A stretch of DNA of 64,000 nt from Candidatus Limnocylindrales bacterium (GTDB lineage Bacteria > Patescibacteriota > Microgenomatia > Levybacterales > UBA12049): positions 32,192 to 96,191 of the forward strand of contig DATLDE010000005.1 of NCBI GenBank assembly GCA_035526025.1, given 5' to 3'. Below, in pieces: positions 13,438-54,645 of the stretch. Each line of letters begins with the position of its first letter. Position 1 is the stretch's first letter. The position numbers were made by a program, and so were the translations under genes. Under the pieces are notes generated by a model that worked only from the letters and a program-made list of their open reading frames with translations, was not told the origin of the DNA and did not search any database.

Positions 13438-14350
13438 TTATCGTACCCAGTACCACTGCAAGATCAGATACTATCTGTAAAACAGGCAATATAATTATCG
13501 CTTTCAAGTCTTTTACATATTTATAGTTCTTCTCGATTGCCCAAATAAAATAAAAAAAAACTAGTAATGCTAAAGTAACTGAGAGCACATAGCTATCTCT
13601 TATTATAGCGAAATACAGCAATAAAATCCCCAAAATGTATCTAATAAAGATTATACCTACCTTAGGTCTAAAAGCCTTAGACTCTGCGTCACCTAATGAA
13701 AATCGATAAAACATATAAGATGCTTCTCTTAAATTTCTCCTGGGAATCCAATAAACAAAAGCTTGCTTACAAAATGCAATTGAGTAATTCATGTTTTTTA
13801 ATTTTCTTGCAAAAACATAGTCTTCATTATGAGAAAATTCTTCTGGAAATCCTCCTGACTTTTCCCACACACTTTTCCTAAATGCCATAGAGCGACTAGC
13901 AGGTAAAAAATTATCTGGATTTACTTTATCAGGCATGACAAGCACATAAGGCACCAGACATTTCTGGAAAATATTATTTGACGATCCTTTATAATACCCC
14001 GCCACAACATCCGTAGCGTTATTTTTAAAAGGTTTGACTATCTCCTCAATCCAATATTTATCCAATATGCACCCTGCATCTGAACAAACTATTATATCCC
14101 CTGTAGAATTCTTGATAGCTTTATTTCTACCTACAGACCTATTTCCAGGTTTGACTATTACTAAAAACTTTCCATTGTAGTCTTTGCTCTTTACTCTTTG
14201 ATCTTTGATCTTCTCAACAGTCTGGTCGCTACTTCCCCCATCAACAATTATTATCTCATCCGGCATTCTAGACTGAGCAAGTAATGATTCGAGTAGCTTA
14301 TTGATGGTTTTTTCTTCATTAAATACAGTTGTAATAAATGTTACATTCAT
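13412..14350 (-). CDS. family 2 glycosyltransferase with C-terminal membrane anchor
   Basis: The GT2 N-terminus MNVTFITTVFNEEKTINKLLESLLAQ...IIIVDGGSSDQT...VCSDAGC is followed by 2-3 C-terminal TM helices. The start was moved to ATG 14350, which overlaps the upstream gene's stop. The track start at 14410 is 20 codons upstream. Confidence 0.75.
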   Translation of the reverse strand: MNVTFITTVFNEEKTINKLLESLLAQSRMPDEIIIVDGGSSDQTVEKIKDQRVKSKDYNGKFLVIVKPGNRSVGRNKAIKNSTGDIIVCSDAGCILDKYWIEEIVKPFKNNATDVVAGYYKGSSNNIFQKCLVPYVLVMPDKVNPDNFLPASRSMAFRKSVWEKSGGFPEEFSHNEDYVFARKLKNMNYSIAFCKQAFVYWIPRRNLREASYMFYRFSLGDAESKAFRPKVGIIFIRYILGILLLYFAIIRDSYVLSVTLALLVFFYFIWAIEKNYKYVKDLKAIIILPVLQIVSDLAVVLGTIIGIFKYGL

Positions 14351-15393
14351 ATTTTCCAAAGTTCTAAATATGTTTTTGTTACTTTTTCCCATGTTTGATC
14401 TTTTGCCCATAAATATCCATTATTTACCATAGCTTCACTTTTCCAGGGATTATCAAGTACCGATTTTATGACATCATATATTTCACTTGCATCTTTACAG
14501 ATATATACAAAATTAGCAAACGGAGAATTTCGTAGATAATCTTCTTTCAATTTATTTTCATATACTGATATGACAATTTTTTTATGAATCAGCGCTTCTA
14601 GCATTAACAGATAAGATGAACAAAATACGATATCTGCGAATTCAATCGCTTCTGTTGAATCACTTACAAATTCTTTTACCTCGCCATATTTTTCAATTCG
14701 CGATGCTAAAGGCCCTTCTCCATAAGATTTGAAGTCAAAAGGTATTTTATTCTTCTTAAGTAAGTCTAATGATTTTAAATATGACATAATCCCCAAATCT
14801 TTTTCCAATCTTCCAATAAAAGTAATGGTTAAATTTGATTTCTGATTTTTGATTTCGCGTTCTGAGCCTGTCGAATGGAATGATTTTTGATTTTTTACTA
14901 AATTCACTCCTCCATATATTACAAAATTGGGTTTTGTATGATACCATTTTTTAATATATTCACCAACGCAAATATTTCCAGATGATAAATGCTCGCTGAT
15001 TTTTCTAATAATTATTGCTTTTTTATCAGGTGGAAACTTGGTCTCATGCCCATGAAACGTGGTAAAAACTTTTTTTGAAGGATTTATGATTTTAAATGGA
15101 AGATACCAGAAGAATACATCATGGCAATGAATTACGTCAGCATTTTTTAGTAATTTTTTAATCTCAAATAATTTTCTCCAAATTCTAAATTTTTTAAACC
15201 AATTATTTTCTCCAGAAACTATTCTCTTAACTGAAATGCCATCAATCTCTTTTGATTTTTCATTATTGTTTCCCTCTGCTATTACTGTGACTTTGTGACC
15301 GAGTTTTATTAAGTTTTTTCCTACCATTAATGCGTGTTTTTCAACTCCGCCAATTTGTGGACAGAATCTACGTGTAAAAAATATAATATTCAT
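14347..15393 (-). CDS. GT-B fold glycosyltransferase (GT4/GT1-like)
   Basis: 348 aa. N-terminal MNIIFFTRRFCPQIGGVEKHALMVGKNLIKLGHKVTVIA is typical of GT4 N-terminal domains. The C-terminal half is Rossmann-like. Confidence 0.7.
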   Translation of the reverse strand: MNIIFFTRRFCPQIGGVEKHALMVGKNLIKLGHKVTVIAEGNNNEKSKEIDGISVKRIVSGENNWFKKFRIWRKLFEIKKLLKNADVIHCHDVFFWYLPFKIINPSKKVFTTFHGHETKFPPDKKAIIIRKISEHLSSGNICVGEYIKKWYHTKPNFVIYGGVNLVKNQKSFHSTGSEREIKNQKSNLTITFIGRLEKDLGIMSYLKSLDLLKKNKIPFDFKSYGEGPLASRIEKYGEVKEFVSDSTEAIEFADIVFCSSYLLMLEALIHKKIVISVYENKLKEDYLRNSPFANFVYICKDASEIYDVIKSVLDNPWKSEAMVNNGYLWAKDQTWEKVTKTYLELWKI

Positions 15394-17021: not shown

Positions 17022-17038
17022 ATTATAATAAGTACTAT

Positions 17039-19534: not shown

Positions 19535-19879
19535 TTAATCAGTTTTTGATTCTTTTTTATCCTTACTTACTGAAATCTTTTCTATTTGAAGTTTGGTTAA
19601 ATGCTGTCTGTGTCCTGTTACTTTTCTATAACGTGCTTTTGCTTTGAATTTTGCTACTCTGATTTTTTTACCTTTTTTCTGTTCCAGAACTTTTGCGGTA
19701 ATTAATGCCCCTCCAACGTGTGGTTGACCGAGTTGAAATGCACCATCCTGCGCTAGAAGTAAAACTTTTTCAAATTTTACATTTGCGTCTTGTTCAACTG
19801 GAAGTTTATCAACCTCAATAATGGAACCTTCTGATACCTTATACTGCTTGCCACCTGTTTGTAAAACTGCGTATTTCAT
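19535..19879 (-). CDS. rplU: 50S ribosomal protein L21
   Basis: MKYAVLQTGGKQYKVSEGSIIEVDKL... is the canonical L21 N-terminus. Lies immediately upstream of rpmA. Confidence 0.95.
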   Translation of the reverse strand: MKYAVLQTGGKQYKVSEGSIIEVDKLPVEQDANVKFEKVLLLAQDGAFQLGQPHVGGALITAKVLEQKKGKKIRVAKFKAKARYRKVTGHRQHLTKLQIEKISVSKDKKESKTD

Positions 19880-19890
19880 AAAGATTATTA

Positions 19891-19919
19891 ATTATACCAA
19901 ATTTCTCATACTTCGGCAA
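19891..19919 (-). promoter_or_regulatory. candidate extended -10 promoter for rplU-rpmA-parB
   Basis: Read on the minus strand: TTGCCG (19919-19914), a 17-nt spacer, then TG-g-TATAAT (TATAAT at 19896-19891). The ATG at 19879 leaves only about 3-5 nt of leader, so the transcript would be near-leaderless. Confidence 0.3.
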
Positions 19920-19930
19920 CGCTCAGTATG
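19907..19930. repeat. hairpin (CATACT / AGTATG stem) with loop TCGGCAACGCTC; the loop motif recurs at 45529-45549
   Basis: Exact 14-nt match TCGGCAACGCTCAG to the reverse strand of 45531-45544. Both copies sit inside stems whose sequences differ but stay complementary. Confidence 0.5.
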
Positions 19931-19951
19931 ATCCTGAGTATGATCCTGAGC
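19925..19951. repeat. tandem direct repeat (AGTATGATCCTG) x2 plus a partial third unit
   Basis: 19925-19936 and 19937-19948 are identical 12-mers, followed by AGC. The first unit also forms the 3' strand of the hairpin at 19907-19930. Confidence 0.7.
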
Positions 19952-19963
19952 TTGTCGAATGGA

Positions 19964-21040
19964 TCATCTTATTTCCAGCACTCCTTTATTTCTGGAATTC
20001 CCGGTAATTGATGAAATCATACCTAAAAATATAAAATTCGATAGAAGAGAACTTCCCCCAAATGATACAAAAGGAAAAGTAATACCCACAATAGGCAAAA
20101 TACCCATATTCATAGCGATATTTACAAATCCTTGAATAAGTATAAAACCGAAAGCAACCGCAAGAAATGCTCTGTTGAATATCTCCTCATTTTCCCTAAA
20201 TAGGATATAAATTCTATATACAAGTAGTAAGAAAGCGATAATCACAATACTTGATCCTACAAATCCAAGTCCTTCAGCAATTGTTGCAAAAATAAAATCA
20301 GTATGTCTTTCAGGCAAAAATTTTAAAACAGATTGTGTTCCCTCAGATATTCCTTTTCCTAAAAATCCACCAGATCCAACTGCAATAATCGCCTGGATAC
20401 TGTTATACGAAGTACCCAGCGGATCAGGATTGGCATTTATAAATGTCAAAATTCTTTGTTTTTGATAACCATGCAAAATAGTCCAAATTAATGGAGAAAC
20501 GAGAATTATTGGCAAAGATAAAAGGCCAAACCACAGAAAAGGAAATCCGATAACTATTAACGCGAACATCCCGGCACCTATATACAAAAGCCCACTTCCC
20601 AGATCAGGCTGAAGAGCAATTAAAACAACAATTGGAATCATTAAAATAATTATTTTAATAAACGACGTAAAATTTATTTCCTGCAGATCTTCTATCAAAG
20701 AGGCAAATGATAAGGCCAGGAAAGGCTTAAGAATCTCTGAAAATTGCAATCTGACTCCAAAAATATCTATCCACCGACTAGCGCCTCTCGTTTCTATTCC
20801 GATAAACAATACTATTCCAAAAAGTATTAATGACATAATATATATCGGGATCTTAAACTGTTTTATGAAATCAATATTTGTTTGTGAAAAAAAAAGATAC
20901 GACAATATCCCAATAACCAATGAGAAACTCTGCGTTCTGAAATATCCAAAATTAACAGACAATAAGGTAGCCAATGAAATTGTAATTAGAACTGCAACCG
21001 GCACAAGGAGCCAGAAATCTATATGGAGTTTTGACTTCAT
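19964..21040 (-). CDS. rodA: SEDS-family peptidoglycan glycosyltransferase, RodA-like
   Basis: 358 aa with about 10 TM helices. Has SEDS motifs (RWIDIFGVRLQFSEILKP; ...TDFIFATIAEGLGFVG). A second SEDS paralog (ftsW) sits inside the dcw cluster. ATGA overlap with ileS. Confidence 0.75.
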   Translation of the reverse strand: MKSKLHIDFWLLVPVAVLITISLATLLSVNFGYFRTQSFSLVIGILSYLFFSQTNIDFIKQFKIPIYIMSLILFGIVLFIGIETRGASRWIDIFGVRLQFSEILKPFLALSFASLIEDLQEINFTSFIKIIILMIPIVVLIALQPDLGSGLLYIGAGMFALIVIGFPFLWFGLLSLPIILVSPLIWTILHGYQKQRILTFINANPDPLGTSYNSIQAIIAVGSGGFLGKGISEGTQSVLKFLPERHTDFIFATIAEGLGFVGSSIVIIAFLLLVYRIYILFRENEEIFNRAFLAVAFGFILIQGFVNIAMNMGILPIVGITFPFVSFGGSSLLSNFIFLGMISSITGNSRNKGVLEIR

Positions 21041-29333: not shown

Positions 29334-29367
29334 TAAGTAATTATATCAAAACTCGGAGGTTAATTAA

Positions 29368-31439: not shown

Positions 31440-31468
31440 GTAGATTAATTATAGCCATTTATTTTTAG

Positions 31469-37453: not shown

Positions 37454-37549
37454 AATTTATCCCAATCCTGAGCTAGTCGAAGGATCGTGGACTATAAGTA
37501 TATCAAAAATAGAGCACACAATACCAAAATTTATGTTAAAATAATTATT

Positions 37550-37885
37550 ATGAAACCGATAATAAACTACGAAGATTTTTCAAAGCTGGATATACGTGTT
37601 GGAACTGTAATTGACTGTATTGAGAAAGAAGGATCGGATAAGCTTCTCAGGCTTACAGTTGACTTTGGCGAAGAAGGAACTCGAAATATCCTTTCTGGAA
37701 TAAAGCAATGGTACAAGCCTACTGACCTCATAGACAAACAATTCGTATTTGTTTTCAACCTTGCACCAAGAAAAATAATGGGAGAAGAATCTGAGGGAAT
37801 GATATTGGCAGCTGATGGTAAAAATGGCAAACCACAGCCCCTTAAACCTAAATCAAAAGCTCCCAATGGTTCCGCGATTTTATAA
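37550..37885 (+). CDS. csaA: tRNA-binding domain protein (CsaA/Trbp111/MetRS C-terminal OB-fold-like)
   Basis: IINYEDFSKLDIRVGTVIDCIEKEGSDKLLRLTVDFGEEGTRNILSGIKQWYKPTDLIDKQFVFVFNLAPRKIMGEESEGMILAADG is a canonical tRNA_bind domain. Start taken at ATG 37550 (MKPIINYE). The track ORF begins at 37487. Confidence 0.75.
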   Translation: MKPIINYEDFSKLDIRVGTVIDCIEKEGSDKLLRLTVDFGEEGTRNILSGIKQWYKPTDLIDKQFVFVFNLAPRKIMGEESEGMILAADGKNGKPQPLKPKSKAPNGSAIL

Positions 37886-37931: not shown

Positions 37932-39005
37932 ATGAGACTTGAGAATAGATATAATTTAAATTCTCACATTGAAAATAAACTGCGTCCACCACACTCACCT
38001 GACGTAAGAAAATATACAATTTTTGATTTTAGGCAAGTTGGAAGCAAAGAAAAACAACCATTTGTAAACCTACTTCCAGGAAAAGTTACATTTTGGCCTG
38101 AAGATCACTCTGTTATTGTACAAGGAGATAAACGGTCGCTAAGACCTAAGGAGCAAGCTTTATTACGCCAATTGCTAGAACAACCCAATTGCATAATTTC
38201 CTCTGAGGAATTAAGTGGAAAAATCTGGCCCAATAGACCATATAGGCCAACGCAGTTACCACTGCTAGCGCTACAGTTGCGAAGAAAAATTGAGCCAACT
38301 CCAAAAAAACCAGTTATCATTCAAACGGTTAAAGGGGAAGGTTATAGATTTGGCGATAAACGTGAAACTAGAACAGAAGTTGAAATAAAAATTGCAAAAG
38401 ACATCGTCTATCTGCCCGATCAAAGAAAAATTGTGGTAAATGGAAAAGAAAAAAAATTGTCAAAGCCTCAAGATGCATTTTTAGAAATGCTCATCGAAAA
38501 AAATCATGAATCTGTCTCCGGTGAAGAAATATACGATCATGCATGGCCGAGTGAACAATATAGCTTAGTCCGGCTATCAACGCTTGTTAGAAGTTTACGT
38601 GAAAAATTAGAACCAGATCCGCTCAAACCAACAATTATTCTAAGGGTTCGAGGAGAGGGCTATAAACTCGCTGATTTAGATTCGTCTAAAGAAAAAGAGC
38701 TAGAGCTTGCAGTAGGTAAATTAAGATATTCTCATGGACAAAGAAATATTACTTTAGGTAAAGATGTAGTCGTACTAACAGAGAGGGAGCATTCAGTACT
38801 ACTGGCATTCTGCGCAAGTCCAGGCGAAATAATGACTCGCGATGAATTAAAAAGAAGAGCTTGGGGAGATGACTCAAATGTTCAAATAGTAAACGTCAAT
38901 AATTATGTGACGAAAATAAGAAATAAATTAGGCAAAGATTCGATTAGAAAACATTTTGGAATAGGATATAGCCTCAATCTAGCTGAAGGTTTTGATAATA
39001 AATAG
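37932..39005 (+). CDS. DNA-binding protein composed of three tandem OmpR/PhoB-type winged-helix (Trans_reg_C) domains, with no receiver domain
   Basis: Three repeats of about 90 aa, each ending in the wHTH wing signature: ...ISSEELSGKIWPNRPY...LALQLRRKIE...IIQTVKGEGYRFGD; ...VSGEEIYDHAWPSEQY...LVRSLREKLE...IILRVRGEGYKLAD; ...MTRDELKRRAWGDDSNVQIVNVNNYVTKIRNKLG...IRKHFGIGYSLNL. Confidence 0.7.
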   Translation: MRLENRYNLNSHIENKLRPPHSPDVRKYTIFDFRQVGSKEKQPFVNLLPGKVTFWPEDHSVIVQGDKRSLRPKEQALLRQLLEQPNCIISSEELSGKIWPNRPYRPTQLPLLALQLRRKIEPTPKKPVIIQTVKGEGYRFGDKRETRTEVEIKIAKDIVYLPDQRKIVVNGKEKKLSKPQDAFLEMLIEKNHESVSGEEIYDHAWPSEQYSLVRLSTLVRSLREKLEPDPLKPTIILRVRGEGYKLADLDSSKEKELELAVGKLRYSHGQRNITLGKDVVVLTEREHSVLLAFCASPGEIMTRDELKRRAWGDDSNVQIVNVNNYVTKIRNKLGKDSIRKHFGIGYSLNLAEGFDNK

Positions 39006-43109: not shown

Positions 43110-44030
43110 TCAAGCCGCATTTAAGCTCAATTCGGTGATTATACCATTTGCAAATTCCCGATTTGGTGCTACCACAACTGGAACATTAATCCCATGTTGA
43201 GCAAATGATTTATATTTTCTAGTACCCAAACTCGTACCATCAGCAACGACCATTACTCCTCCAAGTTCCATTACCAGACCGTAAGTTGGTGCCATCTCCA
43301 AATTTCCCATTAGAGACACATTCCCTTTTCTAGTTACCTCCAACTGCGCATCTATGGCTTCATTAATAAAAAGTGCAGTTCTGGCAGCCTGAGAACGGTA
43401 CGCACATTGCATTAGAGGAAATCTAGTTTTATTCTCAGGATTTTCAAATACATTACTTAGTATTGGCCAATTTATATCAAGATCTATAATGCTTTCCTCA
43501 GATAGCTCTCCAGTTTGCTTTCTTTCAAGCCGAACAGGTTCCCCCGTTTCAATATCAACCTTAAAACATCCTTCTCCCTTTACAGCAAGTAATAATTCTG
43601 GCTTTGGTGAATGAATCATAATTCCAGATACTAAATAATCATCGTATGTAGGATCATCTCCTTCCAAAACGCTAACCATTGTCCCATACATTGAATCCCC
43701 ACGCTTTTCCCTATATTCTCCCGACCCGTCCAGACCGTCCAGAATTACTGTATGCTCTGGTTCATTTCCATATGTAACTGTACCATGTTCTTCTGAGAAA
43801 ACCTGCAAAGGAATTTTTAATATTTTTAAAGAATCAAGTACTACTTCTTCTGCTTTTACATCCATGACCAAAGCAGTCTCTCCAAATTGATTTTGCTGGA
43901 AATTAGCTTTCCCTCCATCTCCTAAGCTTTCGTGTAAATAGTAGGTTTTTTTAATCCATCAATCACCGCAGCAGCAAAATCTTCTTTTGTTGGGGGAAAT
44001 TCACGCTCTCTGGGTTGCTCAGGAATCATT
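43110..44030 (-). pseudogene. inositol monophosphatase/FBPase-family (FIG superfamily) gene, apparently frameshifted at a T7/A7 homopolymer (43946-43952); pseudogene or assembly indel
   Basis: Downstream frame (track ORF 43110-43871, TTG start): VMDVKAEEVVLDSLK...FSEEHG...VILDGLDGSGEY (the DPxDGT-like motif)...MELGGVMVVADGTSLG. The same frame stays open and homologous (ESLGDGGKANFQQNQFGETAL) up to a stop at 43959-61. A second frame begins at ATG 44030, overlaps the glyQS stop as TAATG and ends at 43922. Adding one A to the A7 run would fuse the two frames. Confidence 0.55.
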
Positions 44031-45508
44031 TATGATAGCTTTTTCTTAAAATAAGAATCTAATTCTTTTATTGCTAAACGCTCCTGCTTGGTTGTATCGC
44101 GATCACGAACTGTGACGGTATCATCCTCAAGAGTCTGGAAATCAACAGTTATGCACCATGGAGTTCCGATCTCATCCTGTGCCAGATATCTCTTTCCTAT
44201 ATTTCCCCGGTCATCAAATGCAACCATAAAGTCGTTTTTCAGACTATCATATAAACCTTTTGCTTTATCAATTAGCTCAGGCTTATTCCCAAGAAGCGGA
44301 AAAACAGCAACTTTATACGGAGCAAGACGCGGATTGATTTTTAATACTGTTCTTTTCTCTTCCTCAACATATCCATCAGCAAGCACCATAAGAAGCAGCC
44401 TATTTATACCAACAGCTGGCTCTATAACATGTGGGACTAGTTTCTTTCCAGTCTGGGGATCAGTAATAACAAGCTCCTTATTTGAAGCTTTATTATGTTG
44501 AGTCAAATCATAATCGGTTCTATATGCAAGTCCCCAAAGCTCTTTAAACCCAAATGGAAATTTGTATTCCATGTCTTCAGTTCGCATACTATAGAATGAA
44601 CGCTCCTCGTCTTTATGTTCACGCCACCTGAGATTTTCCTTATCAATTCCCAATTTTTCTGTGGCAAATTCCCACATATTTTTCTTCCAATTCTCAAAAA
44701 GCTCTTTCCAGTCTGATTTCTCAGGGTCGAAGAAATACTCAATTTCTCCTTGCTCAAACTCTATAGTTCTAAATATGGAGTTCCCAGGTGTTATTTCATT
44801 TCGGAAGCTCTTACCAAGCTGCGCAATACCAAACGGTAGACTCACCCGGGTTGAGTCTATAACATTTTTAAAGTTGGTGAATATAAGCTGTGCTGTTTCA
44901 CCTCTAAGATATCCCATTCCCTGATCCCCTTCTACAATTCCTAACTGGACGGGAAATAATAAATTAAACTTTCGGACTTTAGTCCAATTATTGTCTTTTT
45001 TTGGTGTTGCTTTGCATTTGGGACATGGGATATTATGCTGACGGATGATAGAATCAAACTGCTTCTCACTCAGTCCTTCAACTTTTTTTGTTGATACATA
45101 CTCATTAATAATATCCTTACCCAAACCTTCTTCTATAAAATCTGCTCTGTCTGCATAACCAATTAGACCCTTATGATTTGATTCTATAAAGTCCTCAACG
45201 AGGTGATCAGCTCTCATGCGGGCTTTGCATTTTTTGCAATCAACCATCGCATCGGCAAACCCTGCGACGTGTCCTGAAGCCTCCCATATTTTGTGGTGAG
45301 AGATGATACTCCCATCAAGTCCAACCATATCTGATCTTTTTTGAACAAAATACTCCCACCAGAGATTTTTGATATTCCTGAGAAGCTCAGTGCCTGCAGG
45401 ACCATAATCGTAGGTATTGGCAAGGCCACCGTAGATCTCGCTCCCCGGATAAATAAATCCGCGTCTTTTAGCAAGAGATACAATTTTTTCCATGGTTTTT
45501 TCAGTCAT
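44030..45508 (-). CDS. glyQS: glycyl-tRNA synthetase, dimeric class II (GlyQS)
   Basis: 492 aa. The N-terminal IVSLAKRRGFIYPGSEIYGGLANTYDYGPAG and class II motifs are typical of alpha2 GlyRS. Confidence 0.9.
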   Translation of the reverse strand: MTEKTMEKIVSLAKRRGFIYPGSEIYGGLANTYDYGPAGTELLRNIKNLWWEYFVQKRSDMVGLDGSIISHHKIWEASGHVAGFADAMVDCKKCKARMRADHLVEDFIESNHKGLIGYADRADFIEEGLGKDIINEYVSTKKVEGLSEKQFDSIIRQHNIPCPKCKATPKKDNNWTKVRKFNLLFPVQLGIVEGDQGMGYLRGETAQLIFTNFKNVIDSTRVSLPFGIAQLGKSFRNEITPGNSIFRTIEFEQGEIEYFFDPEKSDWKELFENWKKNMWEFATEKLGIDKENLRWREHKDEERSFYSMRTEDMEYKFPFGFKELWGLAYRTDYDLTQHNKASNKELVITDPQTGKKLVPHVIEPAVGINRLLLMVLADGYVEEEKRTVLKINPRLAPYKVAVFPLLGNKPELIDKAKGLYDSLKNDFMVAFDDRGNIGKRYLAQDEIGTPWCITVDFQTLEDDTVTVRDRDTTKQERLAIKELDSYFKKKLS

Positions 45509-45528
45509 ATTTCAGTATATTCAATATA

Positions 45529-45549
45529 ACCCTGAGCGTTGCCGAGGGT
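45529..45549. repeat. hairpin (ACCCT / AGGGT stem) with loop CGGCAACGCTC, 20 nt upstream of glyQS; second copy of the motif at 19907-19930
   Basis: Minus-strand reading ccctCGGCAACGCTCAGggt. The stem sequence differs from locus 1 but the complementarity is maintained. Confidence 0.5.
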
Positions 45550-45834
45550 CATAGGGGTATTATAGCAAAAAATTAGTCCGCTGTAGTTGATTAACTCAAA
45601 TTGGATGTATATCACTTTTTTGCTGTCTCGGAGGCCTTACCTCATGAGCCACTCTACTTGCGTGTCCTAACAAATTAATGTAAAACCTTGTTCTTAATTT
45701 AGGAGGAGTATTTTCCCCTATCGGAAGTAGTGGTAAATTGTTGCGTTTTCTATTAATTGGCGAACCTCCCGCTCCCTCTCTATTCCTTTCATTCATATAC
45801 TTATTATAACTTATGTGTCAATCCAAAGGATTAG

Positions 45835-46377
45835 TTACTGCATTTTTACGAAGATGTTGCGGCTTCTGAGTTTGCGCTCCAGGATATTTTCAATAAAATT
45901 CTCAGTATCCAAAGTCGCAAAACTCGCATTATTCCAATAACCAAGAATTGTCAAAAGTTGCATTTCAAATTCATTGATGATTGTTTTTTGATCCACATCA
46001 ACAAGGCAAAGCTTATCCAATGCATTTTTTAGCAAAAAGAAAATACGCATGTTTTCCTGATTCTCAGGACAGAGCCCATCAACAAGCTCACACAGATGAA
46101 GTGCGTGACCGACACTTTCTAAATCACTTTTTATCTCCGAAAAATTATTAATTGTTTCAGCTTCTGTAAGAATTGGGAAAGCATTACCCTGATAAAGGCT
46201 CAACATAGAGTGATTTATTGGCTCAATGTGTCCGGCACGACGTGAGGTAATTTTCCTGACTCCTGCCGCTTTTACATAGATCTTTCCATTTGTCTTGGTC
46301 AAAACAGTTAAGATCCTGTCGGAGTCTTTATAATTTCGCCTTTTAATTATTATTCCCTCTGTCTTAAAATTTCTCAT
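45835..46377 (-). CDS. recO: DNA repair protein RecO (short form)
   Basis: 180 aa. N-terminal OB-fold pattern EGIIIKRRNYKDSDRILTVLTKTNGKIYVKAAGVRK...GHIEP. Confidence 0.6.
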   Translation of the reverse strand: MRNFKTEGIIIKRRNYKDSDRILTVLTKTNGKIYVKAAGVRKITSRRAGHIEPINHSMLSLYQGNAFPILTEAETINNFSEIKSDLESVGHALHLCELVDGLCPENQENMRIFFLLKNALDKLCLVDVDQKTIINEFEMQLLTILGYWNNASFATLDTENFIENILERKLRSRNIFVKMQ

Positions 46378-52428: not shown

Positions 52429-52449
52429 AAAATAAGTATAACATAGTGG

Positions 52450-54611: not shown

Positions 54612-54645
54612 AAACTAATTATAGCAGAGGGAATATCAAATAATC

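Follow-up and report, generated by a model that had tools for sequence, protein, structure and literature searches.

A hairpin unit with a conserved loop and variable stems near rplU and glyQS as a probable miniature insertion element

The small dispersed repeats (SDRs) of heterocystous cyanobacteria, described by Elhai and colleagues in 2008, are reportedly about 21–27 nt long, mobile as judged by the comparison of orthologous regions and present in both spacers and genes, and the mechanism that mobilises them is said to be unknown. RAYT transposases move the REP and REPIN elements (Bertels & Rainey 2011, PMC3116915), and SDR5 inserts into HIP1 sites (PMC4390886). Rickettsia palindromic elements (RPEs) are found as in-frame insertions in unrelated protein-coding genes of a reduced genome, and some MITEs, Correia for example, supply σ70-like promoters to neighbouring genes (PMC10969869). 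Here we describe a motif, present in a 64,000-nt stretch of DNA (the window) and in related genomes, that is probably the core, conserved from copy to copy, of a palindromic insertion element of very small size, REP/REPIN-, RPE- or SDR-like in character.

The 14-mer TCGGCAACGCTCAG occurs twice in the window, at positions 19913–19926 (+) and 45532–45545 (−), and no third copy was found there with up to three mismatches allowed. The original prediction had reported both copies, placing the second one base off (at 45531–45544), and had assigned them to spacers, where they indeed lie, one between rodA and rplU and the other 23 nt 5′ of the glyQS ATG (45508). Its view that such a repeat is very unlikely by chance was, however, overstated: the window contains 112 repeated 14-mers, TCGGCAACGCTCAG being the most GC-rich of them, and 11% of Markov-1 shuffles of the window hold some repeated 14-mer with at least nine G+C. 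What significance the 14-mer has therefore comes from the location of its two copies, both outside genes, and from the larger family to which they belong. The shuffles speak for a coincidence of two GC-rich 14-mers; against it, both copies fall within the non-coding part of the window, which makes up about 4%, both are kept at orthologous sites in another species, and the window has three more related units. Given that the pattern CTGAGC.{0,2}T.G.CGA has four copies in the window (A, B, A′ and C, see below) against 0.03 expected, the family-level counts effectively refute this coincidence, to which we attach next to no probability.

Each copy of the 14-mer forms the loop and core of a hairpin unit, A at rplU and A′ at glyQS (Table 1). 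The units are about 25 nt long and follow the pattern (T)GTCAT-YC-TGAGC-N3-5-CGAA-GR-AT(GAC), whose core is the 14-mer; a stem of 5–9 bp and of variable sequence closes the loop GAGC-N3-5-CGA, and the ends are often (G)TCAT/ATGA(C). At least five copies are present in the window, two of them inverted in the rodA/rplU spacer (A and B) and the others at glyQS (A′), at a YdjM-like gene (C) and, in frame, in a glycosyltransferase gene (D); nhmmer recovers the window copies. Copy number is modest, with five units in 64 kb, one of which is intragenic, and few at the other loci examined. Units occur singly (20–25 nt) or as inverted doublets able to fold into a longer hairpin, and the insertions measure 31–66 nt. 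Both 14-mers belong to one sub-family, with the loop GTTGCC, and they lie on opposite strands because the rplU copy is the right-hand unit of a doublet, the glyQS copy being a single unit. The right arm of unit B overlaps the rodA stop codon (19964–19966), and the gene on the other side of unit C starts at 37551.

Table 1. Genes, hairpin units, insertions and predicted expression signals in the window
Feature	Position	Strand	Description
RodA/FtsW-family gene	19964–21040	−	Pfam
rplU	19535–19879	−	Pfam; rpmA and parB downstream
Class-II GlyRS gene (glyQS)	44030–45508	−	Pfam
recO	45835–46377	−	Pfam
rodA/rplU insertion	19906–19963	−	58 nt between the rodA TGA and the rplU extended −10; units B and A as an inverted doublet; flanks ATGA...ATGA
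Unit A hairpin	19906–19931	−	TCATACT-GAGCGTTGCCGA-AGTATGA on the gene strand; 25/26 kept in L001
Unit B hairpin	19940–19967	+	ATGATCC-TGAGCTTGTCGAAT-GGATCAT; inverted partner of A, 14 nt away; 17/25 in L001 (decayed)
rplU promoter-like site	19891–19919	−	−35 TTGCCG (19919–19914) from unit A; 17 nt; TGgTATAAT (−10 19896–19891); 11 nt to ATG at 19879
glyQS insertion	45510–45553	−	44 nt, made up of 38 nt and one copy of the duplicated TATGAC (other copy 45504–45509); between leaderless promoter and ATG
Unit A′ hairpin	45525–45553	−	UAUGACCCU-CGGCAACGCUC-AGGGUUAUA on the mRNA strand; begins where the glyQS transcript is predicted to start
glyQS extended −10	45559–45567	−	TGCTATAAT; 6 nt upstream of the uORF ATG
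glyQS uORF	45505–45552	−	MTLGNAQGYIEYTEI followed by a stop; 15 codons; ATG is the predicted original leaderless start; TGA overlaps the glyQS ATG (ATGA)
Unit C with 11-nt tail	37454–37490 (unit 37461–37490)	−	CCACGATCC-TTCGACTAGCTCA-GGATTGGG; 5′ of the YdjM-like ATG (37453)
Unit D	14860–14879	−	TCCATTCGACAGGCTCAGAA; in frame (..FHSTGSE..), inter-domain linker of the GT4 gene 14347–15393

The arms pair as had been claimed, TCATACT with AGTATGA at the first locus (19906–19912 and 19925–19931) and TATAACCCT with AGGGTCATA at the second (45525–45533 and 45545–45553, with one mismatch). When the flanking stems were folded, the hairpins were individually weak (−3 to −5 kcal/mol as DNA, z > −1); the A+B doublet is the most stable fold of the rodA/rplU spacer (−11.4 kcal/mol, z −2.8). 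Covariation was examined by swapping the right arms among copies and refolding them with the loop held open. The mean energy of twelve copies was −6.9 kcal/mol with their real arms and −2.9 kcal/mol with swapped ones (0 of 5000 permutations), and for the six copies that had been found without a stem criterion, the true pairing alone, out of 720, reaches the observed value. The proposal of a fixed loop with compensating stems is thus borne out at the level of the family. Among the viral matches to a 17-mer of the motif, stem covariation was not significant (2.6 versus 2.3 pairs).

L21 homologues assign the organism of the window to Saccharimonadia (CPR). Judged by the corresponding, precisely empty sites of close relatives with the same genes, both loci are lineage-specific insertions. 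The rodA/rplU site is filled only in the window and in contig L001 (GCA_040384045.1; 46 nt), and is empty in L163, L165-168 and L083-L093; in eleven relatives, the rodA stop is followed by 4–5 nt, TTTGGTATAAT and the rplU ATG (AAGATGA-GTAA-TTTGGTATAAT). The glyQS site carries 44–45 extra nt in the window and in L327, a contig of the same assembly, and is empty in L324, L325 and L003-L006, which have the leaderless geometry TGnTATAAT-N6-ATG. An insertion of 31–35 nt at the YdjM-like gene is present in the window, L324 and L327, the site being empty in L326 (TGCTATAAT-TAAACTCT-ATGACC). The window also has a perfect 12-nt tandem duplication, two copies of AGTATGATCCTG at 19925–19948 (+), between units A and B, which is missing from the L001 insertion.

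Further sites vary in the same manner. Unit D has an orthologous copy in L166/L167 and is absent from L165; the FtsL/PBP spacer has a unit in L005 and is empty in the window; a unit doublet occupies the DUF4012/recO spacer in L324 only; the recO coding region has a 22-aa in-frame insertion (..SLSDPEFTEGKSKGLRQAQA..) in L327 only; and a unit is present in the metK leader of L165. In all, eight sites are polymorphic among six genomes, and these comparisons show that units have been gained by insertion, or lost, at many positions of a single Saccharimonadia clade, in spacers as well as in frame within genes. These genomes are roughly equidistant (75–91% amino-acid identity) and the presence/absence pattern fits no simple tree, so that loss, recombination and repeated gain are not separable. 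The original prediction had offered three readings of the motif, to be followed up in related genomes; units do occur there at orthologous sites (L001, L327) and at extra sites elsewhere, and the family, together with its empty and filled sites, singles out the small dispersed repeat as the right one.

Several of these loci have features of their own. In L005 (6914–7023) the FtsL/PBP unit sits within a larger inverted repeat (GGGTATCAAAAG ... CTTTGATACCC), and a composite or nested element is possible. The metK leader of L165 (2263–2462, −) resembles a riboswitch followed by an intrinsic terminator, and its unit, TTATGCT-TCGACTTTGCTC-AGCATAA, is located between the terminator and the ATG. RecO of L327 (2763–3416) has a second small lineage-specific insertion, LPAGRQG, encoded by the palindromic CTGCCTGCCGGTAGGCAAGGT, which may represent another mini-repeat family. 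The GlyRS of the window is 95% identical to that of L324 (8444–9907), the neighbouring genes being 75–86% identical; in L327 (3720–5497) GlyRS is only 56% identical and is split into two ORFs, with the promoter and the inserted leader conserved. Recombination or gene replacement at glyQS is suggested.

Wherever the empty counterpart of a filled site is known, which holds for four sites, a direct repeat of 4–7 nt that contains ATGA marks the boundaries: TATGAC at glyQS, ATGAG in L005, ATGA at rodA/rplU and, in L324 and L327, TTATGA at the YdjM-like gene. In the window, the flanks of the YdjM-like site are ACGA/ATGA, as against TTATGA/TTATGA in these two relatives. Doublets have the terminal inverted repeats TGTCAT...ATGACA, and single units are without them. 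No obvious target duplication was found at the canonical doublets in viral contigs, so that, instead of a true target duplication of 5–6 bp, the ATGA repeats may represent the ATGA(C) terminus of the element itself or a product of survivorship.

At rplU, the predicted placement of TTGCCG exactly 17 nt from a TG-extended TATAAT was confirmed at the sequence level by a consensus scan. In the empty-site relatives, the −35 is TGGAAA, which matches the −35 consensus at four of six positions, as does TTGCCG. We infer that unit A has replaced the ancestral rplU −35 (TGGAAA to TTGCCG) at the 17-nt position. The same arrangement, conserved in L001, would be expected if the motif were a portable promoter module composed of a −35 box and upstream sequence. 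Yet the glyQS copy, read in that orientation, would direct transcription away from glyQS and lacks a good −10, TATAGC at 16 nt and TATTAT at 13 nt being the candidates; units B, C and D lack a matching −10 altogether; and the empty-site relatives already possess an extended −10 together with a −35 (TGGAAA) that is just as good. We consider such a module improbable.

Many genes of the window have an extended −10, TGnTATAAT, 6–9 nt before the ATG and no Shine-Dalgarno sequence; such spacers are located at 29334–29367, 31440–31468, 52429–52449, 54612–54645, 17022–17038 and 45797–45834. Leaderless mRNAs are therefore probably common, and the arrangement suggests that they may be pervasive in the window organism. 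At glyQS we infer leaderless transcription combined with coupling through the uORF (Table 1), and the YdjM-like uORFs of L324 and L327 (MILRLVQDSIAL followed by a stop) have the same ATGA overlap. No intrinsic terminator (a GC-rich stem and a T run) was found at either 14-mer locus. A small ORF lies between recO and glyQS (45596–45796, −, 66 aa; L324 8197–8370 and L327 3453–3626, 57 aa); its position is conserved, it has its own TATAAT-6nt-ATG promoter, and it has no Pfam match. A non-coding RNA between recO and glyQS with the motif as its promoter was considered and rejected: the region is this conserved small ORF and gave no RNA match.

Beyond the clade, GTCATTCTGAGCGAAGCGAAGAATC occurs with an inverted partner in the Falkowbacteria contig L016, and the same unit architecture is seen in the GC-rich metagenome contig L130 and in L096; inverted doublets are present in L016, L130, L324 and L355. 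The 19-mer CTGAGCGAAGCGAAGGATC was found in 37 IMG/VR contigs against about 0.5 chance matches, an expectation derived from a control in which the reversed 17-mer had 15 matches and the real 17-mer 35. The 19-mer is preceded by GTCATC in 27 of the 37 contigs, and about ten of them, such as L355, carry inverted doublets. No transposase was found beside 20 viral copies, and several capsid genes were. In three unrelated phage contigs (L344 5527, L349 6964 and L357 1767) a canonical unit lies 6–30 nt downstream of the major capsid protein gene.

Other searches were less productive. The 14-mer has at least 120 matches in IMG/VR, and those listed resemble chance coding matches in GC-rich contigs. 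A tandem-unit query of a plasmid database gave only three weak matches, the matches in Obg genes (L139/L150) were dismissed as chance, and those in L039 and L113 have an nhmmer E of about 0.5. The Gracilibacteria contig L039 (4717–4816) shares with unit D the exact 16-mer CATTCGACAGGCTCAG, which is there enclosed by a perfect 12-bp inverted repeat and located next to long perfect hairpins. Full-text literature searches with DNA strings and with the encoded junk-ORF peptides returned nothing relevant. Presumably, unit sequences underlie common junk-ORF peptides (LRQAQ, SLS.., PE..EG), the recO insertion of L327 being the sole support for this here.

The distribution of the family also bears on a proposed role as a protein-binding site, namely an operator at which a transcription factor or ParB would co-regulate rplU-rpmA-parB and glyQS. 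Two identical copies adjoin the promoters of translation genes, parB belongs to the rplU operon, and a gene encoding three winged-helix domains is found 450 nt from unit C. However, both sites are insertions that are absent from close relatives with the same operons, family members reside in coding regions and phage contigs, and the winged-helix gene is absent from L327, which retains the units. Furthermore, the motif is neither palindromic nor similar to parS, a 16-bp palindrome close to TGTTNCACGTGAAACA. The ParB and winged-helix readings find no support, and an operator of either kind appears very improbable. The winged-helix gene itself (37932–39005, +) encodes three OmpR/PhoB-type (Trans_reg_C) domains and no receiver, and it is missing from the syntenic region of L327.

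A more serious alternative is that the hairpin is primarily a functional cis-acting element of RNA or single-stranded DNA, i.e. a stabiliser of mRNA ends, a processing site or the site of a loop-reading factor, which has spread by selection for function and not by selfish transposition. In its favour, (i) the units are better conserved after insertion (22–23 of 24 positions) than the adjacent tails (5–6 of 11), (ii) CPR genomes and GC-rich phage contigs have the loop in common but vary in the stems, (iii) units A′ and C start at predicted transcript 5′ ends, (iv) unit B sits directly on the rodA stop codon, (v) units in phage contigs often follow major capsid genes, and (vi) of seven Saccharimonadia copies, six carry the TTCG..GCTCAG form on the gene strand. 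However, the hairpins are weak, most viral loci have the opposite orientation relative to genes, and both the copies in coding regions and the uneven occupancy of orthologous sites speak against a function that is required; the arrival of identical units at new sites is left unexplained. Rfam, at gathering and at permissive thresholds, gave nothing relevant (E ≤ 10 for the two loci, E ≤ 1 for the canonical copies), and neither a T-box nor an L21 leader was among its matches. A tRNA or tmRNA origin was likewise rejected, as ARAGORN finds only a tRNA-Thr in the window and nothing at the unit sites. That the loop is so strongly conserved, between phyla and in units once inserted, is as compatible with a host function as with selfish spread, but as the primary explanation a cis-acting element seems unlikely to us.

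For the insertion element that we favour, the following mechanism can be envisaged. A trans-acting enzyme would recognise the hairpin and insert it, as in the REPIN/RAYT system or in single-strand transposition of the IS200/IS605 type; alternatively, a small staggered-cut transposition would leave a repeat of about 5–6 bp. No transposase or RAYT-like domain was found among the 30 window ORFs scanned. Selection would then retain only those insertions that preserve expression. At rplU, the unit would have put TTGCCG exactly in the place of the ancestral TGGAAA, 17 nt from the extended −10. The leaderless start codon would have been duplicated at glyQS and, in the relatives, at the YdjM-like gene. 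A short uORF would now begin at the promoter-proximal ATG, and the overlap of its UGA with the true AUG would permit termination-reinitiation; the transcripts would also gain a 5′-terminal hairpin.

A broader and more tentative proposition, which we consider doubtful, is that the hairpin represents an undescribed cross-phylum class of ultra-small mobile elements that occurs in CPR bacteria and in GC-rich soil bacteria, as well as in their phages. An enzyme or host factor of wide distribution would recognise the conserved loop, and the element would survive preferentially at the start codons of organisms with leaderless mRNAs, where the ATGA duplication would build a coupled uORF and a 5′-terminal hairpin. 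If true, this would be a general route for selfish DNA to rewire expression in streamlined genomes. That the core turns up in phage contigs of unrelated hosts much more often than expected by chance suggests a conserved recognition system. As the genomes of CPR bacteria and Saccharimonadia are regarded as extremely streamlined, a dynamic family of 25-nt units in promoters, at leaderless starts and, in frame, in housekeeping proteins constitutes a source of regulatory and protein variation that goes unnoticed in automated annotation or is wrongly called as small ORFs. Duplicated start codons, for their part, offer a testable case of a leaderless gene tolerating an insertion between promoter and ATG by means of uORF termination-reinitiation.

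Compared with the systems outlined at the beginning, the element is probably a further case of the miniature palindromic insertion elements. It is not assignable to REP/REPINs, SDRs or RPEs, because the 30 window ORFs include no RAYT or parent IS, the loop and not the stem is conserved, single units have no terminal inverted repeats, and the size is far below that of RPEs. With the SDRs, as these are said to behave, it shares very small units acting as mobile insertions in both spacers and genes; it differs from them in host phylum and, reportedly, in sequence. Whereas SDR5 inserts into HIP1 sites (PMC4390886), the units described here are found at sites containing ATGA.

The likeness to REP/REPINs extends to short imperfect palindromes (A, A′, B and C, with their 5–9 bp stems) that occur as singlets and as inverted doublets with a long fold, to compensatory changes that keep the hairpin, to a location mostly in short spacers beside gene ends, to singlets resembling decayed doublets, and to excision and insertion polymorphism (PMC3116915). 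Apart from the lack of a RAYT in the scanned ORFs, the differences are that the unit starts with (T)GTCAT and not with the GTAG of REPs, that its loop is conserved and its stem varies, that its copy number is low with some copies in frame within genes, and that its core is found in very distant lineages, whereas REP families are lineage-specific. In-frame insertion in unrelated ORFs, here the GT4 linker and recO of L327, recalls the RPEs, which at about 100–150 bp are much larger than the present units and insertions. MITEs, in turn, are usually at least 50 bp long with defined terminal inverted repeats and a target duplication of fixed length, whereas the single units here span 20–44 nt, lack such repeats and have no known parent IS; the promoter supply known from MITEs is paralleled by the −35 to −10 spacing at rplU, but not at the glyQS copy or at units B, C and D. 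Finally, the IS200/IS605 elements have distinct left- and right-end hairpins and cleavage sites outside the hairpins, and no TnpA was found among the window ORFs scanned; by analogy, nonetheless, the units would resemble them in hairpin-dependent recognition, in insertion beside a short specific target, here ATGA, a further copy of which marks the opposite end, in canonical doublets without a clear target duplication, and in a strand bias within the replichore.
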